Assembly: GCA_010093995.1 (NCBI GenBank)
Contig: ML992545.1
Location: 1 to 37,666, forward strand
Direction: 5' to 3'
DNA length: 37,666 nt
Origin: Elsinoe ampelina
Lineage: Eukaryota
Shown: one piece after another, positions 28,286 to 36,112 of the stretch
How positions within the stretch are numbered: position 1 is the stretch's first letter
How the letters are laid out: the number at the start of each line of letters is the position of its first letter
Made by a program: the position numbers and the translations under genes
The notes under the pieces: model-generated
Databases searched by the model: none
What the model was told of the DNA's origin: nothing
Seen by the model: the letters and a program-made list of their open reading frames with translations, nothing else

Positions 28286-28563
28286 TCAATCCTTGGTCAC
28301 CTCAGCAAACACCACCAACACAGCGGAATACCTGTCCTCTCCGTCAGTGTCTGTCAAACTTCCCATGGACTCGATGAACTAGGAAGGGATCCATACGTGG
28401 CAACAGCAACGAACAACTCGCTCCTCTTGCAGTTGGTGAAGATCCCCACGAGAATGGCGAACGTCATGGTGAAGCACCCGATCATGACCATGCGGTCGGC
28501 TTTGGAGAGGTTGGTGACGAGGGTCAGGATGGCGGTGGCGCCGAAGAGGAGGATGAATGCCAT
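28286..28563 (-). pseudogene. Orphan third copy of the DUF6594-like C-terminal transmembrane cassette (70 aa if translated); relic or small gene
   Basis: Exons 28563-28397 and 28331-28286 with an intact intron (GTATGG...CTGAC...CAG) at the same position as in both full paralogs. Translation: MAFILLFGATAILTLVTNLSKADRMVMIGCFTMTFAILVGIFTNCKRSELFVAVATYSAVLVVFAEVTKD*. No N-terminal domain. Confidence 0.7.
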
Positions 28564-28598
28564 TGACGAAACGTCTTGTGTAGAGCTACGTGCGTACC

Positions 28599-29581
28599 TC
28601 ATTTTTGCGTGACCTCGGCGAACACTACAAGCACGGCGGAGTATCTGCAACAACTATCAGTATCAATCTTCTCGATTTCAGGGGATCCTGCAGACGTTGC
28701 GACAGCCACAAAGAGCTCACTCCGCTTGCAGTTGGTAAATATGCCGATCAGCGATGCGAATGTTGTGGTAAAGCCACCAATGATGGCCATGCGCTCCGCG
28801 CGCGAGACAGTGGAGGCAAATGTGAGCACGGCAGTTGCGCCAAACAGCAGGATTACCGCAATGATCACACTCACTATGGAGGTCACCACCCGAGTCGCCT
28901 GGTCATTGTAGAACTGTAGTGGTGGCCATTCCTCAGGGAGCTGCCTTTTCTCTCTCTTCTCGCGGAAACACCAACCGAACATAGCATGAACGATTCTGGA
29001 CAATAGGTCATCCTCTGAGCCGCCTCTATGCAGACTCACGAATTGACTACGGTCCTTGAACATCATCTGGAAGTCATAGGCTGGTTCACGTTGTTCTGCC
29101 CAGGCAGCTGCGGTGTCAAAAATGTGCTGCTTAGGGAAAGGAAGCTGCATCAACGCACTGTGGTTGATCAGCGCTCTCTCTGCTCAGCATATCAGAGCCC
29201 ATTCGAGATAGCAGAACGAATGGGTAGCATCTTACGATAGCGGTCCATCACTTCCTCGATTCGTTTGGCAAGCCGCAGTTTCAAATACCAGCGATTAGCC
29301 CCGGATTCATCGACTGTGGCAAGCTGCTCGAAACATGCCCAGCTTCTGTTCGCATTCTGAATGTCCAGCCTCTCTCCAGTAGATGCTTTCTGGATCAATT
29401 CCTTCTCCCCTATATCAAAGATCTCGAGCTCCTTCTCCAATGCCTGTAATTGAGCGGAAAGGTGAACTAGGTTGCGTACCGAGAGATCAGCATATCGAGG
29501 GAAGTTGGCAAAACTGGCCACCAGCGATAGAAACTTTGAGTATTCGCAATGACCTTGGCTATAAGCTTGTGGGCTGGACAT
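28599..29581 (-). CDS. DUF6594-like membrane protein, copy A, ~291 aa
   Basis: Exons 29581-29236, 29179-28696 and 28644-28599. N-terminal FPRYADLSVRNLVHLSAQLQALEKEL resembles the DUF6594 'F.RF..L..RNLL..Q.EL..LE..L' pattern. Three hydrophobic C-terminal segments end in KRSELFVAVATYSAVLVVF. Confidence 0.8.
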
Positions 29582-30049
29582 GGCAGATTGAAGCCCAGAT
29601 TCGTCGTCCGGCTTTCGGGATGGCCGCAAATATGAGATGGCAATGCCTTGCGTGTGGTGCACAACTACGACGGTGACTATGGCAGGTGTCGCTGGCTTGT
29701 GAGCTCTCGTCTCAGCTTTTGCCTGAAATTCAGGCAGAACGGACTAATGCAAGCCACATCACGCCAAGCGCCGCCGCGCTGACACCCATGAGCTGACGTC
29801 GCTTCTCGGCTGGCGACAGCTGCACTGCGACACATCAGACTAGCCGGAATCAAGGCTTTCAAGTCTCTACTTTTTCGTGCCTTTCTCTTGCTGCCCGACA
29901 TTCGAGGCGAAGGTAACGCCAGGAGGGTAGCCCTTCAAGAGAAGTCGTGGCTTAGTTGTCATTACTGCTGATCATTTGATTATTGCTGTTGCAAACCCCG
30001 GCGCCAACAGGTCGCAGACGAAGGAGATCTGGACATCATCGCCTATCGA

Positions 30050-32406: not shown

Positions 32407-34738
32407 CTAGTCGCCACCACACAAAGCAGCCAATCTAGCTTCAAAAAGCTGCAAGTCAATCTCATTCTCCCGCTTCGCCCTGGCGATCTCCACGGGATCG
32501 TCCAGCGTCGCAACGTATCTGGCGTACTGTGCCATGCGGCGACTCTCCTGTCTTTTGAGCTCTCTGATGGCGTTTCGCTGTATGGATTCTTGTGATCCCT
32601 GTGTCGAGGATGGAGCCTGTGGAGCTTCCGCGTGGGGTCTCTCAAAAAGGCTCCAGATGCCATTGAAGGGCTGCGTGTAGATTGCATGTATGGATGGTGT
32701 AGGGGGCGGGGGGGTTGGTTCGAGCGGCCTCGAAGCTGATGGGTTATCGCCGAGAGGGTTCGGATGAAGCGGTAGGTATACGTGGTGGATGCCAACGCGG
32801 GAGATGACCTCGCGACCGACGACGACGCCAAACATGCAATGCTTGAGCACGTCGAATTGGATCTCTGTATCCTCGCAGACGTGCCCCGCGGACGACTCAC
32901 GTTCTTCATGCATGTCTTCGGGGTCATCTTGGTCTGGCGTCCCTTCTCTGAAGCCGTCGCCGTGACCTTCGAAGGCTAGGTCTGAAATCTGCGACCATGG
33001 GATGAGCACAACACCTTCGGTGGTCTCTTGTGACCCATCGGCAATCCTGATCGGCCGGATTGGTGCTTTGAGCGGGCCAAGCTGGTTCGCGAGCATGAAG
33101 GGTAGGGACATGATGTTTGTGGACGCTCCCGTATCCGCAATTGCCTCCACCTCATTGTTTTGGAATGTGAGGTGCAGCGTCGGAAATTGAGCGGTAGGTT
33201 CTGCCTGAAATGCTCCGAATGGTCGAAACGATCTCTTTGACTGGCGCTTGCATATCCTCCTCTTGTGTTGCGTGAGTGTCCCAGTGGTACACAATGCCGG
33301 ATACCCGATGATGACATCGCTGGGGCTCCCCTCGATAACGAAGAAGCGCAAGGTGAAAGGTAGGGATTCCTCGCCGTGGAATCTCCACTCTGCCTCCACC
33401 CAGCCTGCGCACGATATGTGCCGACCAGTGAGAGTCTGAATCATGACACGTTCCCCATCCTCGAATTGTGCGAGTTGTATTCCTTGTTGCCTTGCGTACT
33501 GGATCGACATGGTGTTGATCGAGGAAGCTGTATCCGGAAGAGCAACGACAGCATGATTGTTGATAGAACCCGGTAGCTCAAGGCTATAGCCAACGGCACA
33601 GACACATTTTCGTTCAGCCTCTTGACCTCGGGCAGGTACCAGAGCTCGTACTTCAATCGCGGGATTGAAGCCTCCAACATCGGCGAGCAGGAGGGCAAGC
33701 TGTTCGTCTTTGGGCTGCGCCAGGCTACTTGCTTCATCGTCTTTTGATGTGCTTGTGTTGTCTCCATTTACATCAACATGGGAAGTCTGTACCAGTAACC
33801 CTTCCAGCAAGTCGCCAGTCACTGGCCATGTGTGATGGGGTTTGGCTGCACTTTTGAGCACTCCATCTGAAGACTGTTCGGACCGAGAATCGCTGTCATC
33901 AGCAAACGAGGTTGGTCTGGTGCCATCTGAACATCGTCAGCCACCCAGCCAGATTCACACAGATTGTCATGCTGGTACTTGATCTGTCTCCGCCCGACTT
34001 GCTGGTCAGGTTTGAATGAGTCACTGAGCTCACACTACCTGGTCCGTGTGAAGATGACGTTGACGAATTGAAGCGTAGCGACGGTGGAAGGCTGAATGCT
34101 CTGTTCCGATCTGAACGAGATCTAGAGGCATATTCGAGGAGACTTGACTTCCGCTTATCCTCTTCTTGAGAGCCATGCTGCACCTCCAAAGAGTCTTTAG
34201 GGCGAGCAGGTGGCCGCAAGAACGAGACCTGAAGAGAGACTGGCTGACGGCCGGTGCGAAGGCTCCAAGGCGGTTCATCAGCGTCTCTGAGTAGCGAGGT
34301 ATCGGTAGAGGGCGGCTCAAGAGGGCTATTGTGGTGGAGATGTCCAGCCAATCCAGATATACCGCGGTCGCTTTCGATCGTGCTGATGCCAGCGACATGT
34401 TGGTAGTGTACCACGGGGCTGTCATTGGCATTGTTTCGTCCATTGATCGACGCCTCCAGCGGCGCCCTCGTCTCTCCTGGTAGGACGAATCGATCATTTG
34501 CGAAGAGTCGAGGCACATCCAGTGCCACCGGACTTGCCGTGAGTAGCAAGTCTTCGTGGTTGGATTCGTGCCATGTGCCATGGCCTGTAGTCTGCACTGC
34601 AAGGGTGACTCTTTTGTTGACTGACTCGAGAGGAGGACTGGTCGACGATGACGCAGCAGCAGCATCACCACAGACCGTGTCTGAGATTCTGTCGGTCTCT
34701 TCAAGTGCCTCAGAATGGCTCCTCTTGTGCGATGTCAT
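32407..34738 (-). CDS. Tandem double retropepsin-like aspartic protease, copy 2, with long Ser-rich N-terminal extension, ~759 aa
   Basis: Exons 34738-33979 and 33926-32407, joined by a 52-nt intron (GTACCA...CTGAC...CAG) in matching phase. Motifs ALPDTASSIN (33534)...VIIGYPAL and AIADTGASTN (33135)...VVVGREVI, then a charged helical tail. An upstream in-frame ATG at 34906 is an alternative start. Confidence 0.78.
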
Positions 34739-35144
34739 CGAGGCGTTGGCTGTCGAAGTCTGGTTCTTCGCTACCAGATTACCAAGGAGAGGAAAGGATG
34801 AATGGCGAAGATGGCATTCAGCTGATCTCTCGAGGGTGTATAGCCTATGTAAAAGTTGAGCAAGTTTCGGTGGAGTCAAGGTAAAACGCCTTGTGCCCTG
34901 CCTCATTCACGGGTCGAATTTCTCTTAGTCTCAGGCAGAATTCAGTAAGGAGCGCGAGCGGCAGTGCAGTGTATCATACCCTCTAGAAAGTCTCAGCTGA
35001 CTGCAGCCAAGGCCAGCTGTGCTACACGTGAAAGGCAAACTAAAATCCAGGCAAAAACCACACGAGGTAAATACCCCGACGGCTTCAGCATTGACACGGC
35101 TTGGCTCACTGTTGAATCTCTTCTTCATCCGATCCTTCGGAGCA

Positions 35145-36112
35145 ATGAGCACGCCATTACAGTACTCGCCGGGATTCTGCGAGTATGCAAAATTTGTGTC
35201 TACAGAGCCAGAGTTGGCTGTCTTTCCGCGGTTCAACGATGTTTCCGTGAGGAATCTTGTTCATCTGATGGAGCAGGTCCGAGAACTGCAACTCCAGCTG
35301 GAGCGTTTTGACTCGGAGGAAAAAGAATTACTGAAGACGGCAACGGGTCGAGAGAAGATGGGAATCCAAGGTGTGAACCAGAGTTGGGCGGCGTTCCTAC
35401 ATGGCGCAAAGCACAATGAACGGCTTCAGAAAAAGCTGAAAGTTGCCCTCGAGCTGGAGGATGTTCTGGAGCGATACCGTGAGCTCATCCATGGTCTATG
35501 CGCGTCGGCATACTGACGAAGACGAGCAGAAAGAGCCTTGATCTCTCACAGCGCGGTCATGCGTCTACCGCCTCCGCAACAGCATGTTGCCAGAGTCTGC
35601 CAGAACTGGATCACTCAACAAGAACCGATGGAGGACAACGCCCACCTCACATGCGACCGGAAAGATCTCGTCAGCCTGTACACAGCTTCTCATGAAGAGG
35701 ATCTGCTGTCCAGGATCGTCCAAAGTCTCTGCGGCTGGTATTATAGAGACAAGAGGGTCGTTCCGTCGAATTGGGACGAGATTCCGATCTACGACGATGA
35801 GAAGACACAGCGGATCACATCCTTCTTCACTGTGTTCATTGCAGTGATCATGCTGTTCGGAGCGACTGCGATCCTGACGTTCGCAAAGGATGTAACTCCT
35901 GTCCAGAGAATGGCCATTATAGGAGCTTTCACGGCGACATTTGCATCTTTGGTCGGAGTCTTCACCAACTGCAAGAGGAGCGAGTTATTTGTTGCAGTCT
36001 CGACGTATGCCCACTTCCCAGTCGTGGCAATGAATGTTGCTGACAGTCTTCCAGGTACTCGGCAGTGCTGGTAGTATTCGCAGAAGTGACAAACAAAGCG
36101 GCATCAATGTAG
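35145..36112 (+). CDS. DUF6594-like membrane protein, copy B, ~288 aa
   Basis: Exons 35145-35478, 35530-36004 and 36055-36112, with the same two intron positions and phases as copy A. Sequence runs FPRFNDVSVRNLVHLMEQVRELQLQL...DLLSRIV...FTNCKRSELFVAVSTYSAVLVVFAEVT. Confidence 0.82.

Follow-up and report, generated by a model that had tools for sequence, protein, structure and literature searches.

Two described systems come closest to the locus reported here. In a survey of fungal gasdermin systems, 80% of 1,884 het-Q1 homologs are given as having a protease gene within 10 kb (PMC8851545), and in a study of DDI2 this retropepsin-like protease is described as cleaving the membrane-bound factor NRF1 (PMC7369636). 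The locus studied here lies in Elsinoe ampelina, on a complete 37,666-base scaffold that constitutes the window of this analysis, and in it genes of two-lobe, retropepsin-like proteases stand head-to-head with genes of the DUF6594 family. Between an AUR1-like and an RFA1-like gene the order is DUF6594-A (A, minus strand), protease-1 (P1, plus strand), protease-2 (P2, minus strand) and DUF6594-B (B, plus strand), that is, one divergent pair occurring twice in mirror orientation. Judged from sequence and genomic context, the best explanation is a conserved, divergently transcribed two-gene module, doubled here by an old inverted duplication, and a functional coupling of some kind between the protease and the DUF6594 protein appears highly probable.

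Head-to-head pairing of the two gene families

A sequence-only reading of this DNA had proposed the above gene order and strands, together with 468 and 406 nt between the start codons of the two pairs, and the open reading frames (ORFs) and Pfam matches reproduce all of these. The start codons of A (29581) and P1 (30050) are separated by 468 nt (29582..30049), the presumed shared promoter of module 1. In module 2 the distance is 406 nt between the P2 Met at 34738 and the B start codon at 35145, or 238 nt (34907..35144) when the public P2 start at 34906 is used. The paralogs are well diverged, as had been noted: the identity between A and B is 46% across 119 aa and 53% across 177 aa, and that between P1 and P2 is 25% across 292 aa (E 7e-24). 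The same reading held that intron positions and catalytic motifs had been kept. The former is true of A and B, in which both introns agree in position and phase (phase 1 after ..RY and phase 2 after ..AVAT/AVST), but not of the proteases, whose introns lie in different places; as to the latter, P1 has DTGS in both lobes, and P2 has DTAS in its first lobe and DTGA in its second. Of the bounds given to the feature, 36112 is the stop of B, but 28286 is the end of a partial third DUF6594 copy (fragment C), and A stops at 28600.

The pairing is also found in metagenomic fungi, which bears out, on a small scale, the earlier suggestion that the pair persists as a unit. JGI metagenome contigs were scanned with an alignment of 11 sequences from the central clade of the protease family, 25-32% identical to P1/P2 and picked as the medoid of hits with its genomic context unseen beforehand. 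From 168 pattern matches, 11 loci were confirmed (L001-L011), nine of them with an upstream flank (L006 and L007 have no usable flank). In eight of these nine, opposite-strand DUF6594 ORFs lie directly upstream of the protease in a neighbourhood other than that of Elsinoe; Pfam DUF6594 (PF20237, gathering cut-off 30 bits) matches at 48-83 bits in seven loci, and the eighth, L004, is identical to L003. When all six-frame ORFs of the loci and of the window were searched with a local hidden Markov model (HMM) built from four Elsinoe DUF6594 proteins, matches were found exclusively beside proteases in the ~113 kb scanned. The start-to-start spacing of the metagenomic pairs is 293-850 nt, and intron 1 of the DUF6594 gene has the same position and phase in the Elsinoe and metagenomic genes. 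The flanks carry a PRPP-synthetase (PRS) gene and an OGT-like gene instead of AUR1/RFA1, and a comparison of the flank ORFs of the metagenomic loci with the window ORFs gave no matches. In L009 (8436-9300) the protease is intact and the DUF6594 gene is reduced to an exon-1 remnant (20.2 bits) that abuts an alcohol-dehydrogenase (ADH) gene; the protease can thus outlive its neighbour.

A further connection between the families comes from a fusion protein. Of the 150 listed representatives of the protease family, we scanned 148 with Pfam (94 of them with a threshold of E ≤1e-5, the other 54 with E ≤1e-8), and one of them, P0119, has a DUF6594 match (profile positions 3-123, 53 bits) immediately ahead of its two protease lobes. 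Over 406 aa, the protease part of P0119 shares 39% identity with the protease of L003. Since the paired genes lie on opposite strands, this fusion is not a simple merging of neighbouring gene calls. The P0119 sequence past about residue 530 resembles read-through.

Several observations weigh against reading the pairing as functional. Three metagenomes account for all 11 loci, among which L003 and L004 are identical and L005 closely resembles L006 and L007. Flanking genes are common to L001-L005, L008 and L010, which therefore represent one syntenic locus in related fungi. The independent cases of pairing number about three, viz., the Elsinoe interval, the PRS-OGT locus and the ADH/zinc-cluster neighbourhood of L009, with L011 perhaps a further context, and L009 itself keeps an intact protease without an intact DUF6594 neighbour. 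In E. batatas the orthologs of P2 (KVT40_009146) and B (KVT40_009184) bear locus tags 38 apart on one 3.69-Mb contig and, if the tags are positional, are not adjacent. A short shared promoter makes head-to-head genes difficult to part, regardless of the functions of their proteins, and 147 of the 148 representatives scanned are unfused. Two features of the proteases belong on the same side: lobe 1 of P2 has DTA instead of DTG, as do all three members of its clade, and P1 may be decaying, given a start at the first strand, a very long branch and a 41-nt intron with a weak donor.

The synteny among most metagenomic loci and the distance between the E. batatas tags would fit unrelated neighbours that came to lie together by chance, were copied in a single inverted duplication and are kept together elsewhere by synteny alone. 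Chance adjacency is, however, hard to square with a pairing that recurs head-to-head in at least three neighbourhoods (AUR1-RFA1, PRS-OGT and the ADH/zinc-cluster flank of L009) and with the existence of the P0119 fusion; the DUF6594 matches in the ~113 kb, all beside a protease, argue against it as well, and we regard it as highly improbable. Alternatively, a bidirectional promoter might keep together two genes of the same process whose products never come into contact. This would account for the short intergenic regions (238-468 nt here and 293-850 nt in the metagenomic loci) and for a metagenomic synteny that extends past the pair, and divergent gene pairs tend to be conserved in fungi. Co-regulation alone nevertheless seems unlikely, as the same families, at 25-30% identity, are paired in two unrelated neighbourhoods, P0119 joins both in one chain, and the two modules have no promoter motif in common beyond shuffled controls (the 8- to 10-mers common to the two intergenic regions are within the range of 300 shuffles).

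The proteases and their DUF6594 partners

P1 and P2 match the Pfam retropepsin families Asp_protease_2 (PF13650, cut-off 24.3 bits) and gag-asp_proteas (PF13975, cut-off 28.2 bits) with 34.3 and 33.0 bits for P1 and 38.3 and 34.2 bits for P2. Their second lobes taken alone are below threshold at 18-19 bits (18.9 for P1), and their counterpart in alignments is lobe 2 of those relatives in which two matches occur. When 1.84 billion representatives were searched with a profile, at least 1,053 relatives were retrieved at E ≤0.001, of which 396 had E ≤1e-10, and in most of the 150 relatives among the matches listed both lobes were matched. The aspartates of both lobes are invariant in an alignment of 103 sequences, and P1 retains the near-invariant residues of the family. 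An AlphaFold2 model of the P2 core (predicted local distance difference test, pLDDT, 85.3; predicted TM-score, pTM, 0.83) was compared with the PDB using Foldseek, and the top 16 matches listed are tethered or covalent HIV-1 protease dimers, with E-values of 4.5e-8 to 4.4e-6 and TM-scores by target of 0.62-0.66 over ~270 aligned columns. Single lobes of Ddi1 rank next, followed by pepsin-like enzymes with far worse superposition. The sole solved relative found by sequence is yeast Ddi1 (PDB identifiers 2i1a and 4z2z; E ~0.005, profile against PDB). The fold matches of the model, the invariant lobe aspartates and the presence of two lobes in each chain indicate that P1 and P2 are natural single-chain pseudo-dimeric retropepsins, with two lobes predicted to pack like a retropepsin dimer, in agreement with the double-retropepsin assignment of the sequence-only reading. 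Word-indexed homolog searches returned Elsinoe matches only (2, 1 and 3), and a scan of viral contigs gave no match. An origin as the protease of a long terminal repeat (LTR) retrotransposon was considered and rejected: the four genes account for all large ORFs in the 28-36 kb interval, and Pfam and repeat searches there found neither reverse transcriptase or integrase matches nor long direct repeats.

P2 (P0001, 815 aa, minus strand) consists of exon 1 at 34906-33979, an intron at 33978-33927 and exon 2 at 33926-32407, a structure whose translation matches P0001 at 100%. The public start lies 56 codons upstream of the Met at 34738, and the E. batatas ortholog shares this extension. The protein has a long N-terminal region without a Pfam domain, the two-lobe core and a conserved C-terminal tail. 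Neither protease has a signal peptide or a hydrophobic segment (maximum KD19 of 1.22-1.38), and both are therefore presumably cytosolic. Compared with the E. batatas ortholog, P2 is 92.5% identical over residues 201-240 and 87.5-100% identical from residue 761 to the end, against 47-80% in the core. The conservation peaks thus lie outside the core, at P0001 residues 201-240 (~34306-34187, minus strand) and in the helical tail at residues 761-815 (~32574-32410, minus strand), and this island and tail look like candidate docking motifs.

Some of the gene models could be compared with contigs from runs X2-X5 mapped to the window; the RNA nature of these runs is only guessed. The contigs show GT..AG or CT..AC joints at four introns in three genes, and A and P1 are both covered by contigs from the same runs. 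They give no cover over the P2 coding exons (32808-34906) or over B, from which we conclude nothing. They differ from the window at 25944, 26032, 26055, 27507 (two letters missing) and 28285-28295, identically in all covering runs, and the runs therefore appear to represent another isolate of the same organism.

P1 (30050..31323, plus strand; Pfam and public model P0003) is assigned exons at 30050-30985 and 31027-31323, separated by an intron at 30986-31026. Its likely start is 30050, as a contig at 29939-30302 has no joint and an in-frame stop occurs at 29969-29971; in P0003 the start is placed at 30092, within the first strand. Contig cover is low over the 5' part (29939-30604). The C-terminal part of P1 is in a different frame, matches family HMM positions 278-353 and is joined to the rest in the public model by the 41-nt intron (GTTCGC..AAG) with its weak donor. 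Homologs align loosely there, the contigs do not reach it, and a real intron and a masked frameshift both fit.

The DUF6594 genes were recognized by Pfam with 36 and 75.1 bits for the exons of A, 41.6 and 91.8 bits for those of B and 40.8 bits for fragment C. A (290 aa, minus strand) has exons at 29581-29236, 29179-28696 and 28644-28600 with its stop at 28602-28600, based on Pfam, contigs and translation. Intron 1 (29235-29180) is spliced in contigs of three runs, and contigs end exactly at 28696 and 28644, with 6-7 letters beyond that fail to match the intron. In the public model of A, P0006 (314 aa), a donor at 28875 (GTGAGT) is joined instead to 28644, whereby the transmembrane (TM) region of A is swapped for that of fragment C. 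As the two contigs that cover 28875 are unspliced at that site, the 290-aa form is taken as the main product, and P0006 is probably wrong or a minor isoform. Fragment C (28563-28393 and 28327-28286, minus strand) is a partial third DUF6594 with the TM helices only, 66% identical to A and 56% to B. It lies downstream of the A stop, on a contig that carries the last coding exon of A; its intron (28392-28328) is spliced in three runs, and the contig extends to 28644. The same arrangement of A and fragment C is seen in contigs of one other isolate. Fragment C may be what remains of a partial duplication, or it may serve as an alternative last-exon cassette or form a small ORF with three TM helices (Met 28563). 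B (288 aa, plus strand, 35145..36112) has exons at 35145-35478, 35530-36004 and 36055-36112 in a splice model that equals the E. batatas ortholog P0004 in length and C-terminus and is 90% identical to it. When the protein database was queried with an exon of B, B itself was not among the results (three hits among 70 candidates); it apparently lacks an annotation or has one whose length falls outside 101-324 aa.

DUF6594 proteins have a helical N-domain of ~200 aa, no signal peptide and three hydrophobic helices at the extreme C-terminus; the sequence-only reading had named a helical N-terminus and three TM segments. Hydropathy peaks at ~205-282, and in an alignment with metagenomic members the C-terminal helix cluster ends ..YSAVLVVF. 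A model computed from an 18-row alignment places helices at 201-229, 235-257 and 261-287 with pLDDT 70-83; the model as a whole (mean pLDDT 56, pTM 0.35) is too poor for a fold search. As a signal peptide is absent, the N-domain is probably cytosolic. In MAFFT alignments of L001-L010 the middle exon was repeatedly matched in its first half (DEALMLQRDIAML..REW..) to part of exon 1 (LE.EVE.LEREAA..RSW..), which hints at an internal repeat in the N-domain.

Duplication, evolutionary rates and genomic setting

In a FastTree phylogeny of 158 protease sequences over 356 columns, the clade of P1, P0009 and P0008 is sister to that of P2, P0002 and P0007 with a support of 0.93, as expected from a duplication of the whole module. 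The metagenomic proteases fall into far-off clades, and A and B are mutually nearest among the DUF6594 sequences compared. The sister relationship of the protease clades thus fits a duplication of the whole module in an ancestor, and the identities of ~50% between A and B and 25% between P1 and P2 are compatible with one such event at the observed ratio of rates. The convergent 3' ends of the proteases enclose a spacer of 1.08 kb (31324..32406), the mirror axis, which has ORFs without a Pfam match; no inverted repeat was found at this axis. At the DNA level only two weak inverted matches survive between the modules (100 nt at 74% and 37 nt at 73%), and the inverted duplication is therefore likely to be old. 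Module 1 looks the more derived of the two, with an extra TM fragment in A and a P1 that has no N-terminal extension, the longest branch in the tree and a doubtful intron.

The partners evolve at different rates. Relative to the E. batatas orthologs, B is 90% identical and P2 62%. Across L001-L005 and L010 the TM exon of DUF6594 is 97-99% identical (78-81% to L008), and the proteases there are 52-77% identical. Between L001 and L003, the DUF6594 gene is 97% identical in the TM exon, 96% in the middle exon and 83% in the first exon, the protease 74% and the flanking ORFs 92-96%.

These rates bear on the proposal of the sequence-only reading that the modules are protease-gated cell death or allorecognition systems, in which cleavage frees DUF6594 as a membrane-damaging effector and the two modules differ in specificity. 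Fungal gasdermins are organised, according to one study, as two-gene clusters of a protease and a membrane protein (PMC8851545). The rapid evolution expected by analogy with het loci is seen in the protease (62% against 90% for the partner of P2, and 52-77% against 97-99% among L001-L005 and L010) but not in DUF6594. One family member, P0019, carries a C-terminal PNP_UDP_1 domain (one of the 148 scanned), a domain common on fungal NLR-type proteins. On the other hand, the supposed effector is the conserved, slow-evolving partner, with a TM region that is near invariant across taxa, and DUF6594 looks like a constitutive three-helix membrane protein rather than a soluble latent pore-former. The modules sit amid syntenic housekeeping genes, and Pfam detected no gasdermin, HeLo, HET, NACHT, NB-ARC or other NLR domain in either partner. 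Both the membrane-damaging role of DUF6594 and the assignment to cell death or allorecognition find no support here, and we consider this explanation improbable.

The setting of the modules on the scaffold is unremarkable. The AUR1-like gene, recognized by a Pfam PAP2_3 match, lies at 26348-27490 on the plus strand, and the RFA1-like replication-factor-A gene (Pfam Rep_fac-A_C) at 37237-37665 on the minus strand. Other genes encode an RRM protein, a mitochondrial carrier, zinc-cluster and C2H2 factors, an alpha/beta hydrolase and a DNA-methylase/SNF2 protein. A Pfam search of the scaffold ORFs found no transposon proteins near either module. The open frame of 1,872 aa at 3-5618 (minus strand), which runs off the scaffold end, combines a C-5 DNA methylase with an SNF2-related domain, a layout that we take to be that of DNMT5-type maintenance methyltransferases.

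Proposed mechanism and comparison with known systems

A possible form of the coupling is that the neighbouring protease is dedicated to cleaving the N-domain of DUF6594, which we put forward tentatively and at somewhat less than an even chance. A soluble single-chain protease, with two lobes packed like the subunits of a retroviral protease dimer, would meet the DUF6594 protein at the cytosolic membrane face; the latter would be anchored by its C-terminal helices with the N-domain on the same side as the protease. Cleavage of the N-domain would then regulate the membrane protein or release the N-domain, and such processing might be regulatory and not necessarily lethal. A complex prediction with the E. 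batatas P2 core (395-690) and the DUF6594 N-domain (1-212), constructs that exclude the conserved island and the tail, gave a score of 0.00, which speaks neither for nor against contact. A more specific version, that DUF6594 proteins are latent membrane switches (effectors or tethered signal carriers), each gated by its co-encoded single-chain retropepsin, is in our estimate rather doubtful.

The domains found at the N-terminus of the protease in other family members bear on this proposal and also on a different relationship. Among the 148 representatives scanned, DnaJ occurs there in 12 (P0027, P0040, P0041, P0046, P0065, P0066, P0079, P0090, P0096, P0103, P0115 and P0134), DUF6590 in two (P0047 and P0127) and Tcp11 in one (P0125). 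One large clade of the tree, distinct from those of the Elsinoe and metagenomic proteases, consists mostly of the DnaJ forms. The variety of these N-terminal modules fits proteases aimed at particular clients, in keeping with a protease dedicated to its neighbour. The DUF6594 protein may instead serve as an anchor or adaptor, i.e. as a membrane receptor that docks the protease through its N-domain for other clients at that membrane, for example in membrane-protein quality control. The slot that holds targeting modules elsewhere is occupied in P0119 by the DUF6594 N-domain without the TM part; the best-conserved parts of P2 (201-240 and 761 to the end) are non-catalytic and docking-like; and the near identity of the TM exon among most loci (97-99%) suggests that DUF6594 has a membrane role of its own. 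A fusion would, however, be equally expected from a pro-domain or substrate arrangement, and L009 has kept its protease without an intact neighbour. Docking for other clients is on balance unlikely, about as much so as co-regulation alone, and cleavage of the N-domain by the co-encoded protease is the form of coupling that we prefer.

The placement of a protease gene beside the gene of a membrane-acting substrate is a known kind of arrangement; the protease class, the partner family and the pairing are undescribed in the literature searched. Literature searches on the Pfam names of PF13650 and PF13975 returned transposon surveys only, one of which lists PF13975 as frequent among candidate fusions of host genes and transposable elements (PMC10799480). 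No literature mentioning DUF6594 and none on natural tandem retropepsins was found with the terms used, in searches whose coverage leaves most subscription journals outside. The head-to-head pairing and the fusion tie two uncharacterised families into one testable protease-partner hypothesis.

As described, the HET-Q1/HET-Q2 clusters resemble the present locus in that a protease gene adjoins the gene of a membrane-acting protein, in that clusters can recur in one genome and in the proposed logic, by which the neighbour is the substrate of the protease. They differ in that the gasdermin clusters combine an S8 or CHAT protease with a soluble gasdermin, whereas here a two-lobe aspartic protease of the retropepsin type (matched by Pfam retropepsin families only) is combined with DUF6594, an apparent integral membrane protein that is highly conserved and has no NLR architecture. 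DDI2 offers the case of a cytosolic protease of retropepsin fold acting on a membrane-tethered protein, as is proposed here. Among single-lobe structures, the domains of Ddi1 match the fold of the P2 core best. Ddi1, however, forms its dimer from two identical one-lobe chains and also bears ubiquitin-like and ubiquitin-binding domains, whereas P1 and P2 have two lobes per chain, no UBL or UBA domain detectable by Pfam, and a presumed partner encoded by the adjacent gene.

In the model, the lobes of P2 are arranged like the two subunits of tethered HIV-1 protease dimers (PDB identifiers 4eq0, 1lv1, 1hvc and 1g6l). These are laboratory constructs with identical halves, 12-15% identical to P2, and P2, unlike them, has diverged halves, long inserts and DTA in one lobe. 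Pepsin-like A1 proteases (plasmepsins, cathepsin D and renin) likewise have one chain with two lobes and one aspartate in each, and in the textbook view they descend from a retropepsin-like gene that was duplicated and fused. Membership of the A1 family was rejected for P1 and P2, with no Pfam A1 match at E ≤0.01, and for the P2 core TM-scores by query of 0.32-0.40 and a root-mean-square deviation of 10-13 Å. Bacterial proteins annotated as 'aspartyl protease family protein' (~285-340 aa, Atlas clusters, PF13650/PF13975) have no DUF6594 partner. The Atlas model of P0001 aligns to such two-lobe proteins over ~216-223 residues with a TM of 0.58-0.62, a comparison of folds only, and as the alignment crosses both lobes, it offers a lead, and only a lead, that the two-lobe retropepsin chain extends beyond fungi.

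The tandem-retropepsin family thus delineated comprises at least 1,053 cluster representatives, and none of the solved structures is close to it; its proteases exemplify in nature the 'tethered dimer' state, intermediate between homodimers of the retroviral type and pepsins. Should the cleavage model hold, fungi have another class of dedicated protease and membrane-protein modules beside the gasdermin systems. If, in addition, DUF6594 proteins were latent switches gated by their retropepsins, the modules would provide the first mechanism for DUF6594, a large fungal family, and the first substrate for natural 'tethered-dimer' retropepsins, and would constitute an aspartic-protease counterpart of the gasdermin clusters with S8 or CHAT proteases, common to distant Pezizomycotina and still duplicating as a unit.

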